Virus record (IMG/VR): IMGVR_UViG_3300047564_001818
Length of the DNA: 64,000 nt
Direction: 5' to 3' (one strand)
Origin: a virus
Taxonomy: Duplodnaviria > Caudoviricetes
The position numbers were made by a program, and so were the translations under genes. Below the pieces are notes generated by a model. That model was not told where the DNA came from. It was given only the letters and a program-made list of their open reading frames with translations, and made no database searches. Each line of letters begins with the position of its first letter. The first letter of the stretch is position 1. This document shows, piece by piece, positions 15,403-60,400 of this stretch.

Positions 15403-16377
15403 TTAAAATAACATACTAAAAAGTAATGATCTATTCTTACTTACTAATTCGTCTCTAGTTTGATTAGCATTTGCGAAATAAATCCCAGTCTTACCAGTAT
15501 ATTCGTCTGAAATATAAATTTTTGCACCGTTACTAGGAAAACTTGGACTTGTGCTAGGATCGTTGTCACCAGGTACACTATTAATATGTAATACATCATC
15601 AACTCTTATACTACCAGTTCCTGATGATTTTAATACTAGATCACTATTACTAGTAAGTGTATCTATAGTTGTTCCTGCGATTCTTATTTCATCAAATTCC
15701 CAGCGGTCAATAAAAAGCTGACTTACAGTAACTCCATCAATAGCAAAATTAATTACACTGTCGACTCCACTAGTTTCTTCGTCGACCACAATAATACTCG
15801 ATGTTGATATTACTCCGTCACCTATCTGTCCAAGAAACACTGTAGAAAATGCTGTAGTAATTGCATCGTCTACATATTTTTTATTTGTAATATGATCGTC
15901 GTCGGTAACATTTACTTCATAGTTTGTAGTTCCAGTAACGCTGATTACTCCTGTGCCGCTGTTTATTAAATAAAGGTCGCCGCCGCCAGTTGATATACTG
16001 TTAGTCCTAATTCCAACTAAAGATCCTTCGTTGTCTCTAAAAACAAATCCGCCTGTTTTAGTAGTTTCTGTATTTGGATCTCTCCAGGTTATGTTTTCGT
16101 TAAATGTAAAGAATGCGTCAGAAAATGTACCTCGGTCTATTCTTAACCCTGCTTCGTCAAGTGTAATACCTGCTCCAGTTTCTCCGCTATTAACAACGAT
16201 AATATTGTCTCTAACAGCTAAATCTTCACTTTGAACCGTTGTAGTATTACCCTCAACAATTAAGTCGCCTGTAATAACAACTTGACCTTGTTCAGAACCT
16301 GTATTCAATCTTATTTGGCCGCCTTCTTGTACGGTTACATAAAAATTGCCATTTGGTACATTAATAAATCTTGACAT
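15403..16377 (-). CDS. Hypothetical fibre-like virion protein (324 aa)
   Basis: VITGDLIVEGNTTTV...DNIIVVN...AGLRIDRG beta-repeat pattern typical of phage fibres; C-terminal LVSKNRSLLFSMLF. Confidence 0.65.
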   Translation of the reverse strand: MSRFINVPNGNFYVTVQEGGQIRLNTGSEQGQVVITGDLIVEGNTTTVQSEDLAVRDNIIVVNSGETGAGITLDEAGLRIDRGTFSDAFFTFNENITWRDPNTETTKTGGFVFRDNEGSLVGIRTNSISTGGGDLYLINSGTGVISVTGTTNYEVNVTDDDHITNKKYVDDAITTAFSTVFLGQIGDGVISTSSIIVVDEETSGVDSVINFAIDGVTVSQLFIDRWEFDEIRIAGTTIDTLTSNSDLVLKSSGTGSIRVDDVLHINSVPGDNDPSTSPSFPSNGAKIYISDEYTGKTGIYFANANQTRDELVSKNRSLLFSMLF

Positions 16378-16390
16378 TTACGATCCTTAG

Positions 16391-16414
16391 TATGGGGGGA
16401 TTGCTCCCCCCATA
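16391..16414 (-). other. Perfect 10-bp hairpin with GNRA (GCAA) loop, no U-tract
   Basis: TATGGGGGGA-TTGC-TCCCCCCATA on +; the loop reads GCAA on the sense (-) strand; sits between two co-oriented genes. Confidence 0.7.
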
Positions 16415-16418
16415 ATCA

Positions 16419-16838
16419 TTAAAGTGCTGTTAAAACAATATAATCGTTTGAGCTATCGTTTTCTAGATACCAAGTATATTTGTTTCCAGAAAAGTCAGTT
16501 GCTACTCGCTTAGTTATTTTTGCAATAGCTACTTCTGCGCTGGTTACATCGCCGCCTGATGGTGTTGCATAACCAACTAATCTCATTTGTCCTAATGCCG
16601 AAGGTGTAGCAGATTGTAATACACAAGTTACAGTATCAGTACTGTCTTTGCCTTTATTTCCTGCTAGATTTCCTACTCTAGTTACTTTAAAAGTTTTTGC
16701 ACCACGTTGTTTAACAATAGCACCATCTGTTCTTAATGAAGTGCCGTCATGAAATGCAATTCTTATACCAGCAGCCGAACTGGTAAAAGAACCAATAACA
16801 TCTACTCCGTTTATATCTTTTCTTAATGGACGTCCCAT
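16419..16838 (-). CDS. Hypothetical virion protein (139 aa) immediately downstream of the major capsid gene
   Basis: Strong AAGGAG SD and its own late promoter; position suggests a head-associated protein (inference). Confidence 0.7.
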   Translation of the reverse strand: MGRPLRKDINGVDVIGSFTSSAAGIRIAFHDGTSLRTDGAIVKQRGAKTFKVTRVGNLAGNKGKDSTDTVTCVLQSATPSALGQMRLVGYATPSGGDVTSAEVAIAKITKRVATDFSGNKYTWYLENDSSNDYIVLTAL

Positions 16839-16920
16839 TGTTTTCTCCTTGACGTTCTAGGTCTACGCGGTGGGTCAATTCCGCATAAGTCCTCCGAATG
16901 AGGCACGATTAACGACAAAG
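16839..16920 (-). ncRNA. Candidate cis-regulatory leader with H-type pseudoknot overlapping the SD
   Basis: Stem TATGCGG/CCGCGTA (16864-16887); loop TTGAC (16874-16878) complementary to GTCAA (16849-16853), which overlaps AAGGAG (16845-16850); upstream CCTC/GAGG hairpin. Confidence 0.5.
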
Positions 16921-16927
16921 TATTTAT
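16921..16927 (-). promoter_or_regulatory. Late promoter motif ATAAATA
   Basis: Lies just downstream of the capsid terminator and restarts transcription. Confidence 0.7.
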
Positions 16928-16945
16928 CAAATTTGTATAAGTCAT

Positions 16946-16973
16946 AAAAATAGGCCCCGTAGGGCCTATTTTT
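16946..16973 (-). terminator. Rho-independent (bidirectional) terminator after the major capsid gene
   Basis: AAAAATAGGCCC-CGTA-GGGCCTATTTTT, 12-bp inverted repeat; the loop reads UACG (UNCG class) on the sense strand, with T-runs on both strands. Confidence 0.9.
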
Positions 16974-16990
16974 TAAGTTATATATACCTA

Positions 16991-18160
16991 TTAGCTGAAG
17001 CTTACGTTGCCGCTAGTGATAGCAACTTTACCTAGGTAGTCTGCTGCGTTACCAAGTGTCGAAGCAGTGTTTGTTAGTTCAACATAACCATAGCGAGTCA
17101 TGAAGCTCACAGTTGGTTCGAATGTTGACGGATCTAGTACAACACCGCTGCTCATCAATGGAATGTATGGGCAGTAGAATGCGGCTGCGTCTGATTCTGA
17201 AGAACCTTTGTAACCGATCAGTACTGCTGAGTCATCTGCTGCGTATGTATTTACATATACACGCATAGCATTATTCAAAGTACCAACCATCTTAGTGTTA
17301 GTTGGTGCTTCAAAAGTACCTTCAGTTGTACGAGCAAACGCTGAAGTAGTTGCTGACTGAAGAATTGTTAGCGCGAATGGGCTAACAACTGCCCAGTTAC
17401 CAGCACCACGACGTGTACGCTGTGCAATCAAGTTGCTTACACGGTTGATTTGAACTGCTAGAGCAGCATGTTCGTCACCAACGAATGTAGCAGTACCGCT
17501 TACAGCAGCTTGGTCGTAAGTTTGGTACACACTAGCAAGAGTGCCTAGAGAATTAAGTACTTCTTGGTCGATTTCAGCAGTAATCTCTTGTGCAAGAGCA
17601 GCCATGATTTCTGCTTCAACGTCGATGCCATGCTGTGACTGTGCGTCTTGAGCAGCTTCGAAAGTCCAGCGTGCGCTGATCTTACGAGTTTTGGCTTCAA
17701 CAGTTTGCTTCAAGATTTGAATGCTTAGTCTGTTACCAGCTGTGCCTTCTGCTGCGGCAGTTGCAGCAGCTTTACCAGCAGTAGTACCTGTATATGCTTC
17801 AGCGATCTTGAATGGGCTTAGGGCTTCTTCACCTGCAACTGCACCTGAAGCGCCTGAGCCAAATGTGTCCGCATAACGAACACGTAGAGTGTGGATTTGA
17901 CCCACAGGACCTGTCATTGGCTGAACGCCAATGAGTTCGTTAGCAATGACTGTTGGCATTACACGACGAATAACTGGTAGGATAACACGGTTGAGTGTTG
18001 CGACATTACCGGCAGAAGTAGCACCAGCTGTAGCAGTTTCTGCTAGATAACGACGAGTGTTCTCTAGTGTAGTTGCCATTACAGCTTTTTTATTGCCTTG
18101 TAGGCCTTCAAGAAGTGCTGTCTTCGTATCCTGCCAGCGACTTTCTAGTAGTTCTGACAT
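16991..18160 (-). CDS. gp23: Major capsid protein, T4 gp23 family (compact, 389 aa)
   Basis: VIRRVMPTVIANELIGVQPMTGPVGQI, VEAKTRKISARWTFEAAQD, LAQEITAEIDQE and FYCPYIPL...TRYG are signature gp23 motifs. Confidence 0.97.
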   Translation of the reverse strand: MSELLESRWQDTKTALLEGLQGNKKAVMATTLENTRRYLAETATAGATSAGNVATLNRVILPVIRRVMPTVIANELIGVQPMTGPVGQIHTLRVRYADTFGSGASGAVAGEEALSPFKIAEAYTGTTAGKAAATAAAEGTAGNRLSIQILKQTVEAKTRKISARWTFEAAQDAQSQHGIDVEAEIMAALAQEITAEIDQEVLNSLGTLASVYQTYDQAAVSGTATFVGDEHAALAVQINRVSNLIAQRTRRGAGNWAVVSPFALTILQSATTSAFARTTEGTFEAPTNTKMVGTLNNAMRVYVNTYAADDSAVLIGYKGSSESDAAAFYCPYIPLMSSGVVLDPSTFEPTVSFMTRYGYVELTNTASTLGNAADYLGKVAITSGNVSFS

Positions 18161-45000: not shown

Positions 45001-45475
45001 AGTTAAGTACAAGATACTGTTCGGTAATAAAGCAAAAGAAGATCTACAAGTGAAGTTTAAGATAGTAAGAAACAGAGACCTAGTGGTTAATGAAAATGAA
45101 CTTAAAGCTGATATTATACAAGCTGTTGACAGATTTTTTGCTATTGAAAACTGGGACTTTGGAGAAACTTTCTACTTCCAAGAACTTAGCGCATACATTA
45201 TGAATCAACTTAGCCCAAAATTGTTAAGTGTTATTATTGTGCCTAGACAAGGATCACAGAGTTTTGGTAGCTTGTTTGAAATAAAATCAGAACCAGATGA
45301 AATCTTTATTAGTGCAGCAACAGTATTTGACGTAGAAATAATAGACGAACTAACAGCTACTGAGTTACAGTCTTCAGGCACAGTAATAACCAGCGTTACT
45401 ACAACTACAACCGCAGGCATAGTCAGTTCCGCAACAGCAACATCAAGCAATACTAGTGGAGGTTACAGCTTCTAA
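42005..45475 (+). CDS. gp6: Baseplate wedge protein, gp6-like (1156 aa)
   Basis: DFDNLRRTMINYL...DYIESSE...LIDMIAF, ENFLETAERRESILRLARMLAYNP, ESNDSIKQNAP..YYTQNRLITGEDY motifs. Confidence 0.88.
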   Translation: MSASDRQNRLLVAEDWKRIYQSFRNADFQSYDFDNLRRTMINYLRQNYPEDFNDYIESSEYLALIDMIAFLGQNLSFRIDLNARENFLETAERRESILRLARMLAYNPRRNQAANGLLKITTVKTTETVRDSSGVNLSGVVVRWNDQSNSNYFEQFIKILNAALPVTNSVGNPLKSENIEGVQTQKYRINATNTTVPVFPFSKNVEGVSTRFEVVSTDFDRGVIREEPPLPGTSPAFLFRDDGQGAGSTNTGFFMHFRQGKLDNGTFNVSNPTPNQVVSIDAENINNSDVWLYAVDTNGFETIQWSKLDSVEGNNIIYNSLFQGIRNVYAVTTRIGDRINLVFSDGVFGNLPSGNFKIYYRTSANRPSVIAPGAIGNVNIEIPYQGRSGSLETLTLGLRLQTTVANGTATESNDSIKQNAPATYYTQNRLITGEDYNIGPLAVSQDIIKTKAVNRISSGISRYFDLKDVSGKYSSTSLFADDGVVYKETFDTKTQFTFSTQSDVEGIIVNVVEGIISSTNLKNFYYSEFPQIIVTDLNAAWENTTEFTNQYTGFIKDIDGTAYTLGSFTANNLRLVEAGTLMRFVPPLSQSGATQYFLPNGTYTTNSEAVGATSYKWTKVAGVTGNGAQTTETGAGAVTLVDLIPDGAILEQIIPKFSRSLSDDLKTQIIDQTFAYRDYALRYNVNTRSWTLVLAADINTVDDFATGKTGDASGQNLDSSWLLYFKTDGETYTITYRNLRYVFESAEEIRFFFDSADKVYDPKTSKILRDKITVLNINKQPDANSSFTRDFVWNISDAYRDKEGYVDTRKIQVQFFDLDDDGVIDDPDLFEKLVEPNVNSQQKIVFQQRYTTSDGVEDFRYFDNINSTVKIVTNESAIVYSREVDGQVFYLFEEGVFKTLNKSRNNTTINTNYKAFVGRSGLKFHYVHVADSNYRIDPSASNIIDTYLLTRNYDTEVRKYLAGGRATEPKPESNDQLFRNYGSAINAIKSISDEIVYHPVKYKILFGNKAKEDLQVKFKIVRNRDLVVNENELKADIIQAVDRFFAIENWDFGETFYFQELSAYIMNQLSPKLLSVIIVPRQGSQSFGSLFEIKSEPDEIFISAATVFDVEIIDELTATELQSSGTVITSVTTTTTAGIVSSATATSSNTSGGYSF

Positions 45476-48400
45476 TGGCTTACAACGACAATCAAAACGA
45501 AAATCCGTTACCAGTTCCAGGCAACGAAAAACGTTCAGCATCTGATCTAATTCCAAAGTTTTTTAGAACAGAAGCTAACAGAAAGTTTTTACAAGGAACT
45601 ATTGATCAATTAATACAGCCCGGAGTTGCAGAAAAACTAAGCGGATTTGTGGGTCGTAAAACTGCCAAAGCTTTTCGTAGTACAGACAACTATGTGGGTG
45701 ATGTAAGCAGTAACAGAGAAAATTATCAATTTGAGCCTGCGGCTGTTATTAAAGACAGTCTAGACAATGTTACTTTTTATAAAGACTACAACGATTATTT
45801 AGGAGCTTTAAACTTTTTTGGAGCCAACACCAGTAATCATGATCGTCTTAACAGCCAAGAATACTATGCTTGGGACCCGCACGTTGACTGGGACAAGTTT
45901 GTAAACTTTCGTGAATATTACTGGTTACCTAATGGACCATTATCTGTACCAGTGCGCGGCCAACAAAGAACAATAGTTAGCACTTATACTGTTACAACTG
46001 TAGTAGAAGATGACAACACAGCATATATTTTTAACGACGGTTTTGTTAGAAATCCAACACTAAAACTCTACAGAGGTCAAACCTACAGATTTGAAATAGA
46101 TACCCCTGGACATCCTATTGCTTTTGCTATTAGCAGAACATTCACGCCGGGTGCTGCTATACTAACTGCAGGTAGAGAAGGCTTGCGAGCAAGTGGATTG
46201 TTTGATGGCATACTCTACGGTAACGAATATGACCAAGGCGACTTTATTATATTGCCTAGCAGCGGTAGTGTAACCTTTGAAGAAGATGAAAACGTTAGTA
46301 CATTGTATCCTGATGGTATTCGCAAACTGGGCGAAGATGGAGAAGAAGTTGCTACTGTTTACATAGAAAAAGGCACAATAGAATTTACTATTCCTGCCAA
46401 TGCTCCTGATAGACTGTACTATATTAGTAAAAACAATATTGACACTAGCGGATTGTTTAGAATTTATGATGTTGAAGAAAACACATTTCTTGATGTAGTT
46501 GCTGACATATTAGGCAAGAAAACATACCGTACTGCTGATGGTATAGAACTGTCAAATGGTATGAAACTAGAGTTTACAGGAGACGTTGCACCTGCCGAAT
46601 ACAGCAACAACTCATGGTATGTAGAAGGTGTTGGAGACAAAATACGTCTAGTCAAAGACATTGATCTTACAATTCCAGCAGCCTATTCTCAAAATAAATT
46701 AGTACCATTTGATGCTGATGCATTTGACATATTACCGTTTGCTAATGCTAGTTCATTTCCAGCTGAAAAAGATTATATTGTTATTAACAGAGCAGCACAA
46801 GATAAAAATGCTTGGAGTCGCTATAATCGTTGGTTCCACCGAACTGTAGTAGAAACTAGTTTCTTACGCAACAATCTACCTGTAAACATTGACGAAGAAT
46901 CTAGAGCCAAACGTCCTATTATTGAGTTTGAGGCTGGCTTAAAACTTTACAACTTTGGTACAGAAGCCAAGCGCGATGTTGATCTAGTAGACGTTTTTAC
47001 TAAAGATGTATTTTCTACAATAGAAGGGCAAATAGGTTACAACGTAGACGGTATTGACTTTGCTGATGGAATGAGAATATTATTTACAGCAGATACTGAC
47101 ATACTAGTACGTGGTAAAATATATCAAGTTAACTTTATACAAATAGGGAATCGTAGACAGATTAGTCTAGTAGAAACTGCTGACAGTGAACCGCTAGAAA
47201 ACGAAACTGTGTTTATTACCCAAGGCAACAAATATGCTGGCCAAACATTCTACTATAACGGCACAGATTGGCGTCTAGCACAAGAAAAAACACAGCGTAA
47301 CCAACCTCCTATGTTTGACCTTTGCTGTCCGCAAGGAAACGAATTTGCTGACACTAATGTTTTTGACAGCGCAACATTCAGAGGAACAAAACTTTTTAGC
47401 TATAGACAAGGCACTGGCACTGTTGATCCTGAACTAGGATTTCCTTTAACCTATAGAAATATTGAAAACAGCGGCGATATACTGTTCGACTTCAATCTAC
47501 TCACTGACAGTTTTACAGTTCAAACTGATAGCGGCATTGTGACTGTGACTACTGATACTGCTAATCTACGAAAATACAACAATAGAATTGACTTTGCTTG
47601 GGTTAATGGCTGGTCGAGTGTAGCATCAACTAGTAAACAATATGTAGTAAGACAGTATGTAGCAGACGAACTTGTTTTAAATAACTTTGAAATAGATGTC
47701 TATGATAAGGCAGGCAATCTTAACGACCTTAAAGTTATTGTACAAGTCAACAATAGTCTAAAAGTAAAACTACAAGATTATGAAGTTGACAGAACTGATG
47801 CCAGGGCATTTGTTCGTTTCTACAATAATCTAAACGAAGGCGATGTAGTAGTCATTAAAACTCGCAGCGCCACAGAAAAAAATGCCAACGGCTACTACGA
47901 GTTCCCGCATAACTTAGAACGCAACCCGCAAAATCAAGATGTAACAGAGTTTACGTTAGGTGAAGTTATTGATCATGTAGACAGTATGATTGAAGAAATT
48001 AACAGTTTCAGTGGTGTATTTCCGGGAACTAGCAATCTAAGAGACTTAGGCAACGTTGACGCTTACGGTAAGAAGTTTGTTAAGCACACCGGACCTATCA
48101 ACTTACCTCTCTATCACTTAACTACTAAAGATTACAATATTTTTAAAGCACTAAGATACAGCAGAGATGAATATGCCAAGTTTAAACGTGTGTTTTTAGA
48201 AACTGCTGAAACATTGGGATTTGATGGCGAAACAAGAATACATGTTGACAAAATACTAGCGGATATTAACAAGGACAAAATTAAAAGTCAGCCTTTCTAT
48301 TTCTCAGACATGATAGGTTATGGACCTCTCAACAGAATAGAATATGAAGTTTTAGATTCTAGGTCAATTTTTTATGCTCTTAGTAGAACATTCTCACTGT

Positions 48401-51400
48401 CAACAGTTAGTTCAGCTAGTGTATTAATATATCTAAACGGTCGTCAACTGATACACAGCAGAGACTACACATTTAACACAGACGGTTATGCACTGATCAG
48501 TGCAGGCCAACAAGAAGGCGACATAATCGAAATAGTTGAATACTCTACAACTGACGGTAGCTTCATTGCTCCAACTCCTTCTAAACTAGGCCTATTCCCT
48601 AAGTATGAACCTGAACTGACTATAGACGACACTTATCAAACTGAAGAACCTAGCACTACAGGCCCATACAAGATTTATGGAGAAGTTGACGTTGGTCCAA
48701 TTCTAGCAGGTACTAGAGGTTGGTTCTATCCTGTTTATACTACACGTTCGGCAGCACGAGCAGCAGATCAAGCACTTGGCGGCACAGGAGTAGTCGAATC
48801 GTATCAGTTTAAAGGTCTTAATAGAACGTTGTATATGGCAGTAAATGCCCAAAATACTAGAGGCGGCCAAGATAACATAGAAATAGATGCTTATCCTGTA
48901 GGTATACCTTTTGTGAGAGGTCACGACGGCAGCTATATTAGAGCTTATCTTGACTATAGAGATAATCTACTAATAGAACTAGAAAATAGAATATTTAATA
49001 ACATCAAGGTTGAATGGTCAGAAGACATAACAGATATCTACAGTTTCCTTGGCGGCGATTTTAGAACTAGTGAGTTCTCTAAAACTGAAATTGACAGAAG
49101 CTTGCTAACAGATTTTACCCAATGGCTGAAGTTAGTAGATAACGATTATACTGACAATTTCTTTTATGATAGACTAAACGAGTTTACATTCAACTATTCA
49201 AATGCTAATAATCCTCAAGGCAAACTGATACCGGGATTTTGGAGAGGCGTGTACAAACGTGCGTTTGACACAGACCGTCCTCACAGTCATCCATGGGAAA
49301 TGATAGGATTTGCTATTAAACCTGAGTGGTGGAACACAGTGTATGGACCTGCTCCGTACACTAGCGATAACTTAATAATGTGGAGAGACTTAGAACAAGG
49401 TATCGTAAGAGAGCCAAATAAAGAAACAGTAGTTCGTGCTAAGTTTACTAGACCTGGTCTAGTAAACTTTATTCCTGTAGATGATCAAGGCCGCTTAAAA
49501 TCACCATTGGCATCTAGTTATGTTAAAAACTTTGTACCGAGATTAAGTACAGGTAACTTTAACTTTGGAGATGAAGCACCTGTAGAAACAGCATGGCGAA
49601 GAAGTTCGCAGTATCCATTTGCTGTAATTACAAGCTTGCTCTTAAACAAGCCTGCCCAAACTATGGGCTCGGGGTTTGACGTTAGCAGAATTTCTAAAAA
49701 CTTAGCAGGTCAAAAGGTTTACGCAGCGTCGAGTAAACCAATATCAAATCTAGACATTGTATTTCCTAATACAATTTCTGACAATCAAAGAATATTAACT
49801 GCTGGTTTTGTAAACTACATTTACAATCTAGTAGCTAGTGACATACTAGCAGTATATAGTGACTATCAAACACAACTTACAAGTTTGACAAATCAGCTAG
49901 GCTTTAAACTAGGTGGATTTACTGACACACAAAAGTTAAATCTAATACTTGAAAGCAGATCGCCTGCTGCAACGTTTGAAGGCGGCGTGTTTGTACCTCA
50001 GGAAAACTATAAAATAGTATTCAATACTAGTTCTCCTGTTGATCTAGCAGTTTATAGCGGTGTAGCAGTAGAAAAGGTAGCCAACGGATTTGTTGTGAGA
50101 GGTTATAACAACGATGCTCCGTTCTTTGAATACTATGCACCTAGAACAGGTACTAGTGGTGTTTCTGTAACAGTAGGCGGAATCTCAGAAACTGCTTCAG
50201 AATGGCGATCAAATACTAGATACCAAGAAGGTCAAATTATACAAAATACCAATGCCTTCTATAGAGCAACGGCAACTTTTACGTCAGGCAACACTTTTGA
50301 CACTGATAACCTAGCACGATTACCAGTATTACCTATTGTTGGCGGAAAAACAGCAGAGTTTAAGCGAACTTTTGAAAATACACAAGTTAGATCAATACCA
50401 TACGGAACGTTACTAGCAAACAGCCAGGCAGTAGTTGACTTTTTATTAGGATATGGTGCTAGACTAGAAGATATAGGATTTGATTTTAACTTTGTAGAAA
50501 ACGAAGGTCGTGTTAACAACTGGGATTCAGCAGCAAGAGAGTTCTTGTTCTGGACCACACAAGGTTGGGCCAGCGGCACTGTGATTACAATATCGCCGGC
50601 AGCTAATAGATTCTTTTTCCAAAGAGATTATGCTGTTGTTGATGACATTTACGACAAGTTTTACAATTACAGTATACTTCAAGCAGACGGTCAATCACTG
50701 CCTAGAGAGTTTGGCAGCTTGTTAAGAGATCAAAACAGTTTTGGTTTAGAAACTGTAAACACAGACGAAGGGCTTTACTCAATAGCATTGCCCTTAGTAC
50801 AAAAAGAACACGTAGTACTACTAGACAATCGCACAATATTTAACGATATTGTTTACCAGCCTAGCACAGGCTATCGCAGAGACAGAATTAAAGTAGCAGG
50901 TTATCGTTCAGACAACTGGAACGGCGGCCTAAATATTCCTGGTTTTGTATACGACGAAGCAATAACCACAGAATGGACACAGTGGCGAGATTATGCTATA
51001 GGTAGCTTGGTTAAGTATAAACAGTTTTACTATGTGGCTACTGAAAATGTTTCCGGTAGTAAAGATTTTAATAGTAACTTCTGGTTTAGACTAAATGAAA
51101 AGCCAGCGCCAGAACTGATCACTAACTTTGATTACAGAATCAACCAGTTTACAGATTTCTATGACCTAGACACCGATGGATTTGACGCTGAACTACAGCG
51201 TATGGCACAACATTTAACAGGTTATCAAAAGCGCCAGTACCTTGCTAACATCATTAACGACGATGTTAGCCAGTACAAGTTCTATCAAGGTATGATACAA
51301 GACAAAGGTACTAAGAATGCACTTACAAAACTGTTTGGCAAGCTTAGTTCGGCCGGCGAAGAAAGTCTTGAGTTTTTTGAAGAATGGGCGCTACAAGTAG

Positions 51401-54400
51401 GACGTTTTGGTGCAGTTGATAGTGTACAGCAGATAGAGTTTAATCTTAAACAAGATAAAATGCAAGAGTCACCACAGGCTATTGAACTTGTAAACAGTTT
51501 ACCTGCTCTAAACTTTGACAAAATATATCGCATCTTGCCATTTGAGATGTACGACAAACCTGCAGATTACAATCACAAACCGTTTCCGATTAAACCGCTG
51601 GATAAAGAATATATCAGATCAGCAGGCTACGTAAATGAAGAAGACGTTTCATTCATAGTAGGCACTACAGAAGAACTCAACACAGGTGACGTAAATCTTT
51701 TAGGACTAGGTGAATATGTTTGGGTTACCGAAGTAGGTGCAACTCCTTGGGATGTTTACCAACATGTAGCTACTAATGCTAGAGTAATTGAACTAGAGGA
51801 CAACCAAGAAACTAACAGTCAAGGTATACCTCTAATGAGTCTACTACTTGACAAGTGGGCCAAGGACCACGTTCAACCTGGCGATCTAGTTGGTGTAAGA
51901 TCTGCGCAAGACAACAATCTTAATAGCATATATAAAGTCGATAGCATTGATCTAGAAGTTGTTAAAATACAAGTTCCTGCAGATAACGAAATAACACCAT
52001 TTGGCACAGCAAACTACATTTTAACTAAGCTAAGAAGTGTAAGAGCTAACGATCTAACTGGTCTTGCAGCACTAGCACAAGAAAAATTGTACAACAATCA
52101 ACGTGTATGGGTTGATGACTACAACGGTGATTGGGCTGTTCTTGAAAACACACCTGTTTATGTAAATCGTCAAACTCTATCAAATCTGTCTGATTTTGAC
52201 AGCACTGTGCAGGACTTTGGTGCAAGCATTGCAGCAACTCCTGACAACAACAACATTTTTGTAGCAGCACCAGGTGATGCCAACGGTAAGATATTCTTCT
52301 ATCGCAGAACTAAAGAAACATTCAACTTCAACGTTGATCAAGAGATAGTGCTAGATGAACCTAATCTCTATACTGTAACTAATAGTGGATTTGCATCTAG
52401 TGTCGACGTTTCAGAAGACGGCGAGTATTTAGTTGTAGGATTACCCGATGCTAGCGGTGTAAAAACTAGATTTAAAGGAAACTTTGATGCCGATGTTACA
52501 TATAACAAAAATGAAATTGTAAAATATCGTGACAGCTTGTGGAAAGCTAACAGAACTATTCTTCCACAAATTGCAACACAGTCGTTCAGCACATTTGATA
52601 CCTACGTTAACATTGCTAACAGTGCAGACGTAGATTCTACTAGCCTTACACTGCTAGTAGCAGGTGATCCAGGGCTTGAAGACAATACTGTTGATCACTT
52701 GTTAGTTCGTGCTCCTAAAGACATGTATCTAGGCACTAAAGCTGGTGATACTATAAACTTATTTTGGAACAGACGTAGTTATGCTTACCCAACACTGGAT
52801 GTGTTTCTTCCGTTTGATGGAGTAATACCTCAAATAACACCAGAGTTTTTACAACAAGATCATGAAATTATAGAAAAAATAGATCATGTATTTTTTGTAG
52901 AAACTTTTGTTACACTACCCAGTGTTGGCGATATTGTAACTACGGATACTGGTCAAGCAGAAGTGTTTTATGTAAGCACTAAAAGAGATAGTGCAGTTCT
53001 TTATCTAAAAAATACCAATGGTACATTTGATATTAGTGGCGAATTGTTTATACAAGCAGTAGACTTTGTAGGGTTTTATACAGAAGAAGACACTTACAAT
53101 ACTAGTGATACAATTGACGGTTTTTGGTATATAGAAACACCTAGCTATTCAAACAACGGTCGTTATTATGATGTAGGTCGTGGACTTGTATATGCTGATG
53201 TAAGACTACAAGGATCTACTAGATCGCTAAATGCTTACTATAATGTTCAAGATACTATAGGTGTTATAGGTAACTATGTTTTAAACAGAGATAGAGTTAG
53301 TTTTGTAACTCAGTTAGCCTATAGAGGAGACCCTGCAGGCGCAGACGGTGTGAACGGAACAGAACAAAACATACCTTCAGATCTTTGGGTTGTTAGAGCT
53401 GGAAAAATCTTTACTGATACATTGACAGCAGGAGACAGTTTTGAATTCCGCATGTATGATCTTGATAACAGAGACTTAACCAACACACTTGATCTTGCTG
53501 GTATTACTGGAAACTACACTGTTACTAACAAAACACAAACTGTCTATGATCTGTGGGACGGATACATTGATTTTGAATTTACGAGATTTGACTTTAGTGG
53601 TTTTCCTTTTGAACCTCAAATAGGAGACATAATTGAAGACGTTCAAACTCCTAGAGACGGCACAGGCGGCCTAGCTCTTACTAGCATAACAACTAGTAGT
53701 GCTGAAGTTGTTTACTTACAGCGCAACTTTAACAGCGTCAGAGTTTATGTAAAAGTTCTCTCAGGCACGTGGGCACAACAAAACAATATTGGTCGTTACG
53801 AAATAAGACGCAATGCCAACAACTCAATTAGAGGACCGGGTGATGTCGATCGTGTTATGGGAACTGTTAACTCTCCTAATAATGATATTGTGGTAGGAAC
53901 AGCACAGGTTGGTAAACTCATAGTATTCCAAAACACAGTAAACTTTACAGATACAAGAGCATGGAATGCTATTCCTCCTGTAGTAGATGAAGAATATTTC
54001 TTCTTTGACGAAACAGTAGAATCAGGTATAGCTCGTGAACCTAACACACCGTTCAGCCTCAACAAGGATTATACACAGGTCTACCACATTCCTGCTGATG
54101 AGTTTGGCACAGCAGGACCTGCAGGCGAAGGCGCAGTGGCCATATTCCGCAAACTACCAGACGGCAGATACAGGTTTAAAAAGCTGTTTGTAAGCGAATA
54201 CGGAACTGCAAACAGAGGGTTTGGTAAAACTGTTAAAATTAAACAGGTCAACAACTATTATACACTGTTTGTGTCAAGCATAGGAAATGGCAGTAGAGAT
54301 CATCCTGGCAGCGTAGAAATATTCCGTCACGGTACTAAACCTAGCGACAGTTTCCGTGGAGAATATAAACTTACTGCTTACTCACAAGGTGATATAGTAA

Positions 54401-57400
54401 TCTACAAAGATGAATACTATGTTGCTAGAAAGAATGTGTCAGAGACTGAGAACAGAATACAAGATCCAATCTATTGGAATAATATTAGCTGGCGTAGAGG
54501 AAAAGATGTCAACTACAGAGGTGACTGGGATAACAGCTACGGATATGCAACAGGAAGTATTGTACGATACAACAGTAAATTCTATCAAGCACAGACTAAC
54601 ATAGCAGCAGATGAACCATTTAATACTGCTCTATGGCAAGAACTTAGTGAGTTGATTGATTATGTAGGATATCTACCAAATCTAACTGGTGTAAATGCTT
54701 ACAATGAAGATGTGTTTGATCCAGTAACTAATATTGCACAGTTTAGCAACGCATTTGATGTAAGCAGAGATGCACAAGTTATCGTAATCACTGCTGAACT
54801 AGTTAATGCCAGCAGCACTAGTGAAACTAAGGTATTGGTATACAGAGAAACTGGCGACAAATACCTGTTGGATCAAATCATTGATGCTCCTGAATTACAA
54901 AACACAACTGATTGGGCAAGAAAAATTAGCATACGTCCGAGCGGAACACAGTTTGCTATCAGTGCTCCTTTAGATGATGTTATAAAAACTAATCAAGGTC
55001 AAGTGTATGTTTACAATCAAGTAGACGGCGAGTTTGTGTTAAGTCAAACATTAACACCGCCAAACAATGAAGAAAGTGAACAGTTTGGTTATGACATTAG
55101 TTTTGGTGAAGATAACCTTGTAGTATCTAGTTTAAATGGCGATCAAAGAATACCTGCTACTTTTGACAGCGGCGCAACTGTGTTTGACAACAACTTTACT
55201 AATTTTAGAAACATTAAACTAGATACAGGTGTAGTTTATATATTTGAAGAACTTAACAATAGATTAGTTTATAGCGAACAGTTCCGCTACGATTCTGCAC
55301 AGTCAGAGTTTGGTGAAACACTGTTAGCTAATGATAATCATGTTTATGTGGGTGTGCCGTCACATGCGTCTAACGAAACTTCAAAAGGTATCGTAGTTGA
55401 TTACAGAAAGCCAAAAGGTGTTTATGCTTGGAATACACTAAGATCAAGTGTTACACCTGTTGACATCTCTAGAATAGAAGGCATATTCCTTTACAACAAG
55501 CGTACTAATCAGATTGTTAGTTACATTGATTATGTTGATCCAATACAAGGCAAGATCCCGGGTGTTGTAGAACAAGAGTTAACTTACAAGATAGGATTTG
55601 ATCCTGCGGTATACAATGTTGGCGATTTAACTGACACAACAGTTGATCCTTCAAGATACTGGGGTGCAGAACACGTAGGCCAAACTTGGTGGAACATTAA
55701 TACTGCTAGATTTGCTTTCCCATATCAAGGATCAACTGCGTTCCAAAAGAACGAATGGAACCGTTTGATGCCAGCAGCAACTATTGACATTTACGAATGG
55801 GTAGAAAGCGATTTACTACCGAGTCAATGGGATCAGCTAGCAGACACTGATGCAGGAGTTGATAGAGCAATAAGTGGTACATCTGTTTATAGTGACGCCA
55901 AATATAGTGCTAGATTAACTTATGACGATGTTGGCCAAACTTTTAGTGTCAAATATTACTTCTGGGTACAGAATAAGAAAACTGTACCAGTAAGCAGAGA
56001 CAGACTTATTAGCACTTTTGAAATGGCTAATCTAGTTGCTAGACCAAGAGAACAAGGCTATAGATTTGTTAGCTTCCTAAGTGAAAATAAGTTTGTAGTA
56101 AACAACTTTGAAAATCTAGTAACTTCAGATGACTTAGTACTAAACATACGTTATAGCACAGGACCGCAAAAAGAACAAAACACACATGCGCAGTACCTAT
56201 TGATGTCAGACGGGTTAGACCGCAGCAGACCAGATCCTGACGTTGAACGCAAGTGGTTTGATAGCTTGATAGGTGTTGACACCAACAACAGACCTGTACC
56301 AGATCCAAACATACCGGCTGCTAAACGCTATGGTATACAGAATCGTCCAAGACAGGGCATGTTTGTAAATCGCATAGAAGCACTCAAGCAAGCTATAGAG
56401 CGTGTAAATCTTGTAATATCTCAAAATCTAATAGTGGATCAATATGATATTGACAGACTGTTCGAAAAAGAACCACAGCCATCTACAGCTACAAAATTGT
56501 ATGATCTGTCAGTTGACACTTATGCTGATCTACGATTTGTAAGTACAAACAAAGTAACACCTGCTAGACTGAGACCTGTAGTATTGAATGGTCGTTTGAT
56601 TAGAGTAGACATCACAGAAAGCGGACGCGGGTACAAAGTTGCTCCTAGCATTGAAATAGTTGGCAGCGGAGTAAATGCAGAAGTTGAACTAACAATTAAT
56701 AATCTAGGACAAGTAATTGCAGCAGAAGTAGTTAATGACGGTTCGGGATATGACGAAAACACACTAGTTAACGTAAGAAGATTCACTGTCCTAGTAAATA
56801 GTGATGAAACACTAAACGGTAAATGGGCACTTTACTCATGGAACAACAACACTAACTCATGGTTTAGAAGCAGCCTACAAGATTACGATGTAAGCTTGTA
56901 CTGGAACTATGTTGACTGGTATGCAGAAAGCTACAATCAGTTTACAAACATTGATTACGAAGTTGATGGTGCTTATCTATTGAGCAGTCTAGATGATCTA
57001 GTAGGCGATATAGTAAAGATCAAAAACGTAGGTAGTGGCGGCTGGCTGCTGTTAGAAAAAGTTGCCAGCGAGCGTACAGAAGATTATACCATAAACTATA
57101 AGACTATAGGTCGTCAAAATGGTACAATACAGTTTAAAGACAGCTTGTATGATTATTCTAAGAATACAGTCGGATTTGATAATCGCAGCTTTGACAGCTG
57201 GTTCTATGATAATAATCCTGCCAAAGAGTTGAGAATCATACTAGAAACACTGCGTGACAACATATTGATTACTGATCTTGCTGTAGAATACAATCAACTG
57301 TTTTTTGCAAGCTTGCGTTATATTCTAGCAGAACAGCCAAGAGTTGATTGGATGTTCAAAACTAGTTTTGTGAATGTTAAACATAATCTAGGTGCGCTTG

Positions 57401-60400
57401 AACAAAAGATAAATTTTGAAAACAATAAGCTACCTAGTTATCAAGCTTATGTCGAAGAAGTAAAACCATACAGCACCAAAATAAGAGAGTTTGTAAGTTC
57501 GTATAACAGTCTAGACAATACCAACAGCAGTGTAACAGACTTTGATAATGCACCTTACTATGATGAGTTGACTAAACGTATAGAAGCTAGTCGTGCAGTT
57601 ATACGTGACGGTGTATTGTTTGGTGCCAATTCTCTTGCTAACGAATATCCACGCAAGCATTGGGCGGATAACATAGGTTATGGCGTAAAAGAAATACGCA
57701 TAGCTAATCCTGGCAGTGGATATACCGGCGAACCTAAAATACGCTTAGAAAGCAGTGAAGGCACTGGGGCTACAGCTCGTGCATACTTAGGTTATGGACG
57801 CATTACTAAGATTGAAGTAACCAATCCGGGTCAAGGGTATATTACAACACCTAGAGTAGTAATAGAAGGACCGCAGAACGACACAGGCGTACCGGCCTTA
57901 GCTAGTGCCATACTAGGCAACGGACTGGTAAGAACACCTTCAATAAGAATCAAGTTTGACAGAACAGCAGGCATTTACACATTTGAAGATCTAGCCGAAA
58001 CAGAAACATTCACAGGTTCAAATGTAAGATCTGTATTTGATCTAGAATGGCCAATGGATCTTGATAATAGAAAAGTTAAAGTATATGTAAACGGCACTGA
58101 ACAGTTAAGAAGTCAATACAGCTACAAGAATGTAGACTATTTGCCAACAGCTGAATCTTTAGCTAAAGATTTTGTGTATAACAATATAACCAGCGCAGCA
58201 GGTCCTGGAACACAAAAGTTAGTAGAAGGTTACAGCTACCAAAAAGGTCGCATAACTTTTGCTCGTCCTCCTGCCAGTGGTGCAACCATAACAGTTGAAT
58301 ACTACAAGCCGTTAAGTATGCTAGGAGCTGAAGACCGTATTAGGTTTGCTTATGCTCCTGTTGCAGGTATGTTAGGTAACGATCTAGCACAGCTAATGAG
58401 CGGTGTAGACTATGGTGGTGTTGAAGTACGTGGATTTGATTTTGGCGGCCCGAGCGGATGGGATAGCCAAGGATGGTACACAGACACTTGGGATACCTTT
58501 GATAACACATTTGAAGATGAAGTATTTGTAGCAGATGGATCTACTATAACAGTCGAACTATCACAACCACTAACTAACGGCGTTGTCTACAACCTTTATA
58601 AGAACGGTGTAAGATTAGACGATCCTAGCTATAACAATGGAACACCTACAAATCCAAATGCTGTAACTAATAGCATAACAGGCAACGGTGTAACTACGGT
58701 TATCGATCTTGACGATCTAGGTATACCATTGTTAGACGGCGACATACTGATTGTAAGAAAAGTTACTAGCGACGGCAGTGTAATACCCGATCCTCTCAGC
58801 TATGATATGGCACTGTCAGGCGGTGATTTAGCATATCAAACAGCTAGAGGCGTTAACCCGGAAGAGATTGTTATAGACGGTGACGGTTTTGTTACACCTA
58901 CAACATCAAGCGGTCCAGAAGAACTAGTACCAGGACAAGTTCTTGATACACTGGATATCAAAGTCTATACTAGAGAGAGTAGCGGCCAAGGCATGATCTA
59001 TAGCCAAAGCTACATTATGAACAGTGCCGTTACTGTTTATGATCTAGGTGTTATACCCGGCAATCAAAACAGTGTGATTGTAAAACTTAACAATGTAATA
59101 TTACCAGCAGACCAGTATACTATAGACTGGACTAATCGTACAGTTGAAATATTAAACCCAATCAATGGTGCAGAACTGAATATTGTTACTGTTGGTCTTG
59201 GCACTCAAAACATCATGGACTACGGATTCTTTACATCTGTAGAAGGTCAAACTGATTATGTAACTACAGTTGAATGGACAGACAATGCTAATGTGTATGT
59301 CACCGTGAATGGTGTACAACAGGCTGTATTAGTGTTTAGAAATAGTGTTAACAATAGAACTGCATTTAGATTCGACACACCGACCGCAGCAAGTGATATA
59401 ATATATTGGGTTGTATTTGATAATAGCACAGAAGTAAACTACAGTCAAATAGTCAAAGACTCATTTACAGCCAACGGTACAGATACTCAGTTTGAACTGC
59501 TAACTGCTCCGTTCTATGCTCAGCCTAACGAACACAACATACTTGTTAAAGTAGGCAACTCAATACTAAACGCAGGATACAATCTACAGTTTACTATACC
59601 AAGCACGGGCGACAGAGAATATGCACTAGAAACATTCCAACAGCCTGTAGGTTCACTTGATGTGTCTGAAGTGAAGGTATTTTTAAACGGCATAGAGATT
59701 ACAGCTCCAGTACAGTGGCGTTTAGATATTAATAACAGTTCAGTTATATTATCAGATGAAGTAGGTGTACCTGGAGATCTTTTAGAATTTTATGTAATTG
59801 CAGACGGCGACTATAGAATTTCTAATAAAACTGTAACACTTAATACTGCACCTGCTAATGGTACTGTAGTTGAGATATATCAGTTTAGCAATCATGATTT
59901 GTTGGGCATTGAAAGAATTAACTATGATGTGGTTGCCAGAACAACATTAATACCAGAAGACATACAGTATGTAACCTACAACAGACTAACAGTAGGAGAA
60001 ATCACACTAAGATCACCAGCAGTGGATGCTGAGTATGTTTGGGTAGCAGTAAACGGCGAACTGTTAACACCTAGTGTTGACTACTACGTAACCAATGACA
60101 GAACTAAACTAAGACTAGTACGCACCCCTGCTGCTAATGATGTGATTGATGTAATACATTTTACAACACCTGTAAATGTAGCGAGATTTGCATATCGTCA
60201 GTTTAAAGATATGTTGAACCGTACGCACTTCAAGCGTCTAGATACCGCAGCAACAGCACTAGCACAACCGCTGAACTACTACGATCTAAGAATAGAACTA
60301 GTTGACGGAACTGCATTGGCTGAACCAAACAAGGGTCAAAACATGCCGGGAATCGTTTGGATTAACAGTGAACGTATTGAATACTTTGTAAAAGAAGGCA

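Follow-up and report, generated by a model that had tools for sequence, protein, structure and literature searches.

The leader of the 139-aa gene in this phage DNA is a member of freshwater-2 (RF02980), an orphan cis-regulatory RNA family in Rfam, and the loop of its second hairpin probably pairs with the start codon of the gene. I give the joint reading, namely that this is the 5' leader of a late phage message, that it belongs to freshwater-2 and that its translation is tuned through a start-codon pseudoknot, a probability of about 0.7. The original prediction had seen here a translational switch built on a pseudoknot over the Shine-Dalgarno sequence (SD). What stands of it is a conserved structured leader that very probably acts on translation, with a loop knot that is itself probable, but the partner to which conservation and a G:C to C:G swap point is the start codon and not the SD.

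Results

Genomic context

The minus strand is the sense strand for the leader, and the 139-aa gene is the next one after the major capsid gene (Table 1). All the elements on which the original prediction was built are present on that strand: the promoter word, the CCUC/GAGG hairpin, the UAUGCGG/CCGCGUA stem and the TTGAC of its loop. The position after the major capsid gene is likewise confirmed, by the match of the upstream gene to the major head protein family phrog_138. At the DNA level this capsid gene is 65-72% identical to the capsid genes of Rak2-like and other jumbo phages.

The window, that is, the whole stretch of 64,000 nucleotides that was analysed, contains a single ORF of 5133 aa on the plus strand (45475-60876), preceded by ORFs of 1156, 899 and 1005 aa, and its minus strand holds ORFs of 1700 and 1111 aa. 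Because of the 5133-aa ORF and the other very large ORFs in the window, the source is taken to be a giant (jumbo) phage.

The terminator-like hairpin that follows the capsid gene is also kept in L011-L013. A simple terminator scanner made no call at 16946-16974, probably because the A-run can pair with the U-run.

Table 1. Coordinates of the leader, its candidate pairing strands and the neighbouring elements in the window.
Feature	Position	Strand	Remark
Major capsid (head) protein gene, 389 aa	16991..18160	-	phrog_138 major head protein, E 7.7e-99
Terminator-like GC-rich hairpin AUAGGCCC-UACG-GGGCCUAU, with A-run and U-run at its flanks	16946..16974	-	After the capsid gene; direct sequence reading
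T4-type late-promoter-like word GATAAATAC	16920..16928	-	82 nt before ATG, 30 nt before P2
P1 hairpin CCUC-AUUCG-GAGG	16891..16903	-	First helix of the RF02980 consensus
P2 hairpin UAUGCGG (16881-16887) / CCGCGUA (16864-16870), 7 bp	16864..16887	-	One U.G pair
P2 loop AAUUGACCCA, 10 nt	16871-16880	-	Contains TTGAC and CCCA
TTGAC of the P2 loop, pseudoknot strand of the original prediction	16874..16878	-	
CCCA, 3' end of the P2 loop, candidate start-codon pseudoknot strand	16871..16874	-	
P3 hairpin GAC-CUAGAAC-GUC, 7-nt loop near-invariant	16851..16863	-	Stacked directly on P2
GUCAA, pseudoknot partner in the original prediction	16849..16853	-	GUC is the 3' strand of P3; AA is the start of the SD
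Shine-Dalgarno AAGGAG	16845..16850	-	Unpaired in the family consensus
AUG start codon (16836-16838) and GG of codon 2	16834..16838	-	UGGG (16834-16837) is the candidate partner of CCCA
139-aa gene (MGRPLRKDINGVDV...)	16419..16838	-	Protein family that follows freshwater-2 leaders
Gene starts with ATAAATA(C/T/A) upstream	14472(-), 21911(-), 27975(-), 26283(+), 41512(+), 42005(+), 60896(+)	As listed	Word 12-49 nt before the start

The T4 late promoter has the consensus TATAAATA, and the word at 16920-16928 resembles it, lies at a suitable distance and recurs before late genes. In the leaders of the relatives described below, the TAAATA core is invariant (122/122), GATAAATAC is the commonest form of the word (77/122), and its distance is mostly 29-36 nt to P2 and 67-115 nt to the ATG. 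Within the window, ATAAATA(C/T/A) stands upstream of seven other gene starts, most of them of structural genes, a distribution that would suit T4-type late promoters whose leaders are for the most part very short. Long spacing occurs only twice in the window, once with the 82-nt leader of the 139-aa gene and once where 119 nt separate a promoter word from the 1111-aa gene. The promoter 8-mer is found 6 times in the window where 4.65 are expected, which is no excess over chance, so the promoter argument rests on position and conservation. I infer a promoter function for GATAAATAC from the T4 consensus and, by the same analogy, a late transcript probably begins with this leader.

Membership of the freshwater-2 family

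A scan against all Rfam families matched RF02980 (freshwater-2, Cis-reg) at 16836-16905 on the minus strand, with 42.6 bits over the full model (positions 1-84 of 84); E is 1.1e-4 for a search of 1.8 kb and 0.0038 for the 64 kb. It is the sole Rfam match with E<=1 across the 64-kb window. The score falls short of the gathering score of the family, 49.9 bits, which is an operational cut-off and no structural feature. The shortfall arises because P3 is short (3 bp in the window against 4-5 bp in RF02980) and because the 13-nt linker between P3 and the SD is absent.

Every conserved word of RF02980 is matched in the window, namely ACUUAUGCGG, CCGCGUAG, CUAGAAC and AAGGAGAAAAC-AAUG, and the words stand in their structural places. 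A hairpin lies directly 5' of ACUU (16891-16903), the P2 words UUAUGCnG and CnGCGUAG are exact, the 7-nt loop CUAGAAC adjoins P2 on its helix of 3 bp, and AAGGAGAAAACAAUG at 16836-16850 leads into the 139-aa ORF. Leaders of orthologous genes score 41.7-74.5 bits against the same model, and six of these 11 reach the gathering score. The window leader is a short-form, sub-threshold member of one continuous homologous series, RF02980; the element that had been put forward as undescribed is thus a short-form copy of an RNA already catalogued.

The freshwater-2 motif presumably goes back to the survey of 224 motifs by Weinberg et al. 2017. The name freshwater-2 is absent from the main text of that survey (PMC5737381), and a full-text literature search for 'freshwater-2' returned unrelated papers only.

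Conservation of the three hairpins

Relatives were collected along two independent routes: by way of the downstream protein, which gave 38 IMG/VR loci with orthologues at 51-65% identity, and by way of the P2 pattern, which gave more than 120 further viral contigs. The same leader is present at all 38 of the orthologue loci. The pooled set consists of 122 unique leaders from uncultured phages, with 120 distinct rows in the pairing statistics and an alignment of 237 columns. By a simple classification, 57 of the leaders are short forms, 53 have a GGACUnCU linker and 12 have another long 3' part.

The P1 and P2 hairpins are far beyond chance, because both are conserved with compensatory changes in the 122 leaders. 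A P1-type hairpin abutting ACUU is predicted in 102 of them, and its 3' strand takes 61 different sequences. In P2 every cell of the 120 distinct leaders is paired (100%), and one of its pairs varies among G-C, U-A and A-U, with 68 two-sided changes. The third hairpin, P3, has no counterpart in the original prediction, and its 3' strand is the GUC of the GUCAA proposed there as a pseudoknot strand. In P3 the paired fraction is 95% of cells, and each of the four pairs shows two-sided changes (120 leaders). Together P2 and P3 show 262 two-sided changes and a covariation score of 0.47, against 0.09 for shuffled and at most 0.05 for slid partners. In an unbiased all-against-all scan of the 237 columns the P3 pairs are the top covarying column pairs, and the scan found no helix of comparable strength besides P1-P3. 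The conserved U.G pair in P2 identifies the sense-strand RNA as the strand that folds. The words AGGAG and GGAG, ending 6-7 nt before the AUG, are conserved in nearly all leaders.

Folding energies in the window are -7.3 kcal/mol for P2 and -3.5 kcal/mol for P1; the 3-bp P3 is unstable on its own, and the folding energy of the whole leader is unremarkable (z = -0.23). The minimum-free-energy fold pairs the 5' end (CUUUG.UCGU) with ACGU.CAAGG, and this pairing was set aside because the segment lies a few bases from the promoter word, is probably not fully transcribed and is unconserved. An upstream ORF starting from the conserved AUG inside P2 (AUG CGG AAU UGA in the window) was also considered and rejected: it has no conserved SD, and no frame is kept because the loop lengths differ by non-multiples of three. 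ORFs of 40 and 43 aa that overlap the leader were rejected on the same grounds.

Several features of the leaders are recorded here as observations in their own right. The P3 loop CUAGAAC of the window (16854-16860, minus strand) resembles a tRNA anticodon loop in having U as its second and A as its sixth base. Anticodon loops carry U33 and a purine at 37. The hairpin might mimic an anticodon arm, for which the thrS operator is a precedent. The leaders L031, L034, L089, L138, L155, L051 and L121 have a fourth hairpin in their 3' part, whose loop displays the SD and which stops at the AUG (for example AAUGAU...AUCAUU, with the compensatory variants AAUGU/ACAUU and AUAUU/AAUAU). Finally, the manA RNA (RF01745) is found at L032 (2661-2865, 80.4 bits) and at L002 (2630-2834, 47.9 bits), in both about 70 nt upstream of the freshwater-2 leader, so that two orphan leader RNAs lie in tandem between a capsid-region gene and the MGRP gene.

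Proposed pairing of the P2 loop with the Shine-Dalgarno region

The original prediction held that TTGAC in the P2 loop pairs with GUCAA, giving an H-type pseudoknot that occludes the SD and serves as a ligand- or protein-responsive switch. The complementarity itself, with GUCAA overlapping AAGGAG, can be read directly in the sequence. Its 5 bp are real, the loop lengths are sterically fine for an H-type knot, and the duplex is worth -4.9 kcal/mol against a P3 of only 3 bp in the window. The pairing also recurs in one further leader, L114, whose P2-to-SD segment is identical to that of the window and precedes a different paralogue.

Conservation, which the original prediction had itself made decisive for this pairing, speaks against it. 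TTGAC:GUCAA can form only in the window leader and L114, two of the 120 distinct leaders, where chance would give 1.5-6%. The loop columns of the knot are gapped in 93-101 of the 120 leaders and, where letters exist, 54% are paired; its central G:C pair occurs only in the same two leaders. About 15 leaders share a TGACCCA-type loop, and most of these read GUUUU downstream, with the 5' strand of P3 changed to AAC, a combination that keeps P3 and not the TTGAC:GUCAA knot. Other downstream reads among some 13 leaders with the TGACCCA loop are GUAA or GGG, and many leaders with GUCAA have loops without TGAC, GACCUAGAACGUCAA being common among leaders of this kind. Over the 122 leaders as a whole, the loops are no more complementary to the downstream region than their shuffled versions are. 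When the window loop is shuffled, 5.9% of the shuffles yield a Watson-Crick run of at least 5 with the 33 nt downstream, and 1.5% yield one near the SD.

The TTGAC:GUCAA pairing is not beyond chance. It would moreover use up the 3' strand of P3, all four of whose pairs covary. The covariation check that had been suggested for the leaders thus sustains the P2 stem (and P1), conserved with compensation, but not this pairing, which is a peculiarity of the window leader and one near-identical leader, competes with P3 and bears no sign of selection. By energy alone it may still form in this one RNA. I regard a switch that works by occluding the SD in this way as very improbable.

Probable pairing of the P2 loop with the start codon

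In most leaders the P2 loop closes on its 3' side with a C-rich word (CCCA, CCCG or CCA), and a pairing of the CCCA:UGGG kind is possible in 89.6% of cells. UGGG is made up of the UG of the start codon and the GG of codon 2. AUGGGA is present in 119-120 of the 122 leaders, and 120 of the 122 have A as the synonymous third base of codon 2, whereas AGA and CGU interchange freely at codon 3. Because the third base of codon 2 is fixed while codon 3 switches freely, codon 2 must be under constraint beyond that of the protein.

As the pairing is nearly invariant in the main set, leaders with a different second codon were sought. Among leaders with AUGGCA there are four lineages that have G opposite position +5, with the loops UUUGCCA, AACGCCA, CGCCA and UAGCC; the first of these is a 5-6-bp complement of UGGCAA. 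G stands opposite +5 in 4 of the 17 leaders with C at +5 and in none of the 72 with G at +5 (Fisher p = 0.001, counted over unique leaders that are not phylogenetically independent). Conversely, C stands opposite +5 in 2 of 17 and 42 of 72, respectively (Fisher p = 0.0008, again over unique leaders and not independent lineages). Five of the 17 rows with C at +5 are probably spurious non-leader matches, and their removal strengthens the test; three of the four lineages with G opposite +5 were found after the hypothesis had been formed. A pairing of the P2 loop with the SD rather than with the AUG was considered for these leaders as well and rejected, since GCCA loops that occur with AUGGCA fit the start region only.

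The CCCA:UGGG duplex (-5.5 kcal/mol) is at least as good as TTGAC:GUCAA, in a helix of only 4 bp. The pairing is not universal: about 11 leaders are without CC in the loop, mostly in a clade with the P3 loop GGAGAAC. Most of the leaders without CC belong to a clade with a perfect anti-SD, CUCCU, in the linker a few bases before AGGAG, as if anti-SD pairing had replaced the start-codon knot, which is a post-hoc observation. More widely, 53 of the 122 leaders (for example L049, L014 and L039) have the linker GGACUnCU 6-10 nt before AGGAG, with CUCCU or CUUCU complementary to the SD.

From these comparisons the P2 loop probably pairs with the start codon (UGGG) and forms a pseudoknot. Argued mostly from invariance, together with one covarying position, the start-codon knot is supported but not proven.

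The downstream protein family

Every leader with an identifiable start precedes an ORF of 116-216 aa that begins MGRP (MAR in the AUGGCA set), and 112 of the 113 downstream proteins form one family even without their first 12 residues. Proteins behind conserved leaders are only 50-65% identical, and the one strongly conserved part across paralogues is the basic N-terminus, MGRP(L/I)(N/R/K)K. Homologues of the 139-aa protein number at least 1405; none of them is named, and the contigs that encode them reach 369 kb. The protein itself has no match in Pfam or PHROG, and a tblastn search against 50,697 cultured-phage records found none. Modelled with an alignment it is all-beta, with a mean pLDDT of 84.5 (35 in a single-sequence prediction). 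Foldseek returned nothing for this model at E<=0.001 in the PDB, and a wide search with VIA-align gave a best Z of 4.8, for Tudor/SH3-like barrels over residues 14-89, which is within background. The matches in BFVD are uncharacterised phage proteins only, including those of two jumbo phages, Agrobacterium phage Atu_ph07 and Yersinia phage fHe-Yen9-04. An association of the protein with the capsid, as its gene position might suggest, is only a guess.

On L077 two neighbouring MGRP-family genes (215 and 134 aa) each have their own late-promoter word and freshwater-2 leader (480-504 and 1662-1686). Promoter, leader and first codons behave as a cassette common to paralogues (L077, L114).

Discussion

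How might such a leader work? The T4-type late-promoter word starts a leader of 80 nt, counted from a presumed start, which folds into P1 (variable), P2 (UAUGCnG/CnGCGUA) and P3 (loop CUAGAAC), followed by an exposed strong SD and the AUG. This unit of promoter, leader and first codons in every case heads the uncharacterised all-beta MGRP.../MAR... family, which belongs to T4-like and jumbo phages that are uncultured. The CCCA with which the P2 loop ends on its 3' side would then pair with UGGG to give an H-type pseudoknot, stacked coaxially on P2, that masks the AUG; the SD would be left open for ribosome docking, the start codon being masked in its place. The near-invariant lower part of P2 and the P3 loop would be the likely contact for a factor that opens or locks the knot.

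The leader may be a protein operator, in which the MGRP-family protein (by feedback) or a late regulator binds the base of P2 and the P3 loop and represses or activates all paralogues. I consider this possible, though on the unlikely side. Stems and a 7-nt hairpin loop, not junctions, hold the conserved bases, the motif is strictly tied to one protein family with a conserved basic N-terminus, and on some contigs (L077) two such genes each stand behind a leader of their own. The operators of T4 gp32, RegA and ribosomal proteins are precedents for control of this kind. Against it, the model of the 139-aa protein matches no solved fold, the best hits being weak ones to Tudor/SH3-like barrels at Z 4.8. 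A protein operator is compatible with the start-codon knot, which would be the state that the protein locks.

The main rival to control by a start-codon knot is a passive stabiliser, that is, a leader whose hairpins do no more than shield the 5' end of a strongly expressed late mRNA and offer a strong SD, with no switching and with no function for the complementarity between loop and start codon. Hairpins at the 5' end slow mRNA decay, given the 5'-end dependence of RNase E. The SD is indeed very strong and unpaired in the consensus, the leader starts a few bases after the late promoter, the pseudoknot is short at 4 bp, and some clades are without the CC loop. However, a passive leader has no need for a near-invariant lower P2 and P3 loop across proteins that are 50-65% identical, and it leaves unexplained both the conserved synonymous base in codon 2 and the covariation between the loop and +5. 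This explanation is rather unlikely.

A small-molecule riboswitch of a new class, for which a conserved multi-stem leader with a possible pseudoknot ahead of the SD might speak, as in SAM-II and preQ1, has very little probability: no riboswitch family is among the hits, either those with E<=10 in 16000-17800 or those with E<=1 over all of the window, in keeping with the original remark that the sequence does not fit SAM-II or preQ1, the junctions of 0-3 nt offer almost no conserved unpaired bases for a pocket, and the downstream genes are one phage protein family with no metabolic link, under an Rfam type of Cis-reg only.

The reading that I prefer, a freshwater-2 leader that tunes translation through a start-codon pseudoknot, can be taken one step further. 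Freshwater-2 leaders might be feedback operators, with the MGRP-family protein or a late factor binding the base of P2 and the P3 loop and locking the knot; I offer this tentatively, as it is decidedly improbable. Feedback through the conserved basic N-terminus or the small beta-barrel modelled for the MGRP protein is an attractive possibility. If true, it would amount to an undescribed phage translational feedback circuit, common to all paralogues, across hundreds of uncultured giant phages.

The copy in the window is itself ordinary, one more short-form copy of an orphan motif already in Rfam. What the comparison yields is a fixed context for freshwater-2: it stands behind a T4-type late promoter and ahead of a single uncharacterised protein family, and its place is often right behind the major capsid gene. 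In the AUGGCA leaders, an independent data set, there is a statistically supported base swap in favour of the knot between loop and start codon, by which the orphan motif becomes a directly testable model of translational control. Short forms make up 57 of the 122 leaders, and those that were scored fell below or just above the RF02980 threshold, so annotation may miss many.

Comparison with known systems

With the RF02980 family itself the window leader shares the order of elements: P1, then ACUUAUGCnG...CnGCGUAG (P2), then P3 with CUAGAAC, then AAGGAGAAAAC-AAUG. The difference is that the structure line in Rfam has no pseudoknot. The link to a late promoter, the single downstream protein family and the pairing between loop and start codon are additions to the Rfam entry.

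SAM-II and preQ1 are translational riboswitches built on H-type pseudoknots. The likeness of the present leader to SAM-II and preQ1-II/III is in the working principle only, a hairpin loop that pairs with the ribosome-binding region just downstream; there is no match to them in Rfam, and the partner supported here is the start codon, not the SD. Freshwater-2 also differs from SAM-II and preQ1 in having no evident ligand pocket and in preceding genes that are not metabolic.

The manA RNA (RF01745), one of several orphan leader motifs known from T4-like cyanophages and marine phages, is, like freshwater-2, an orphan cis-regulatory RNA of uncultured T4-like phages. Its fold and its size (192 positions) are different, and the window contains no match to it.

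The T4 gene 32 operator consists of a 5' pseudoknot and an unstructured region at the ribosome-binding site; the knot lies upstream of that site and nucleates the cooperative loading of the single-stranded-DNA-binding protein. The gene 32 and RegA operators resemble the present case in their T4-like phage setting and in the structured 5' leader, which there serves protein-mediated translational control. They differ in that no sequence similarity was detected, and in that the knot proposed here would involve the AUG itself.
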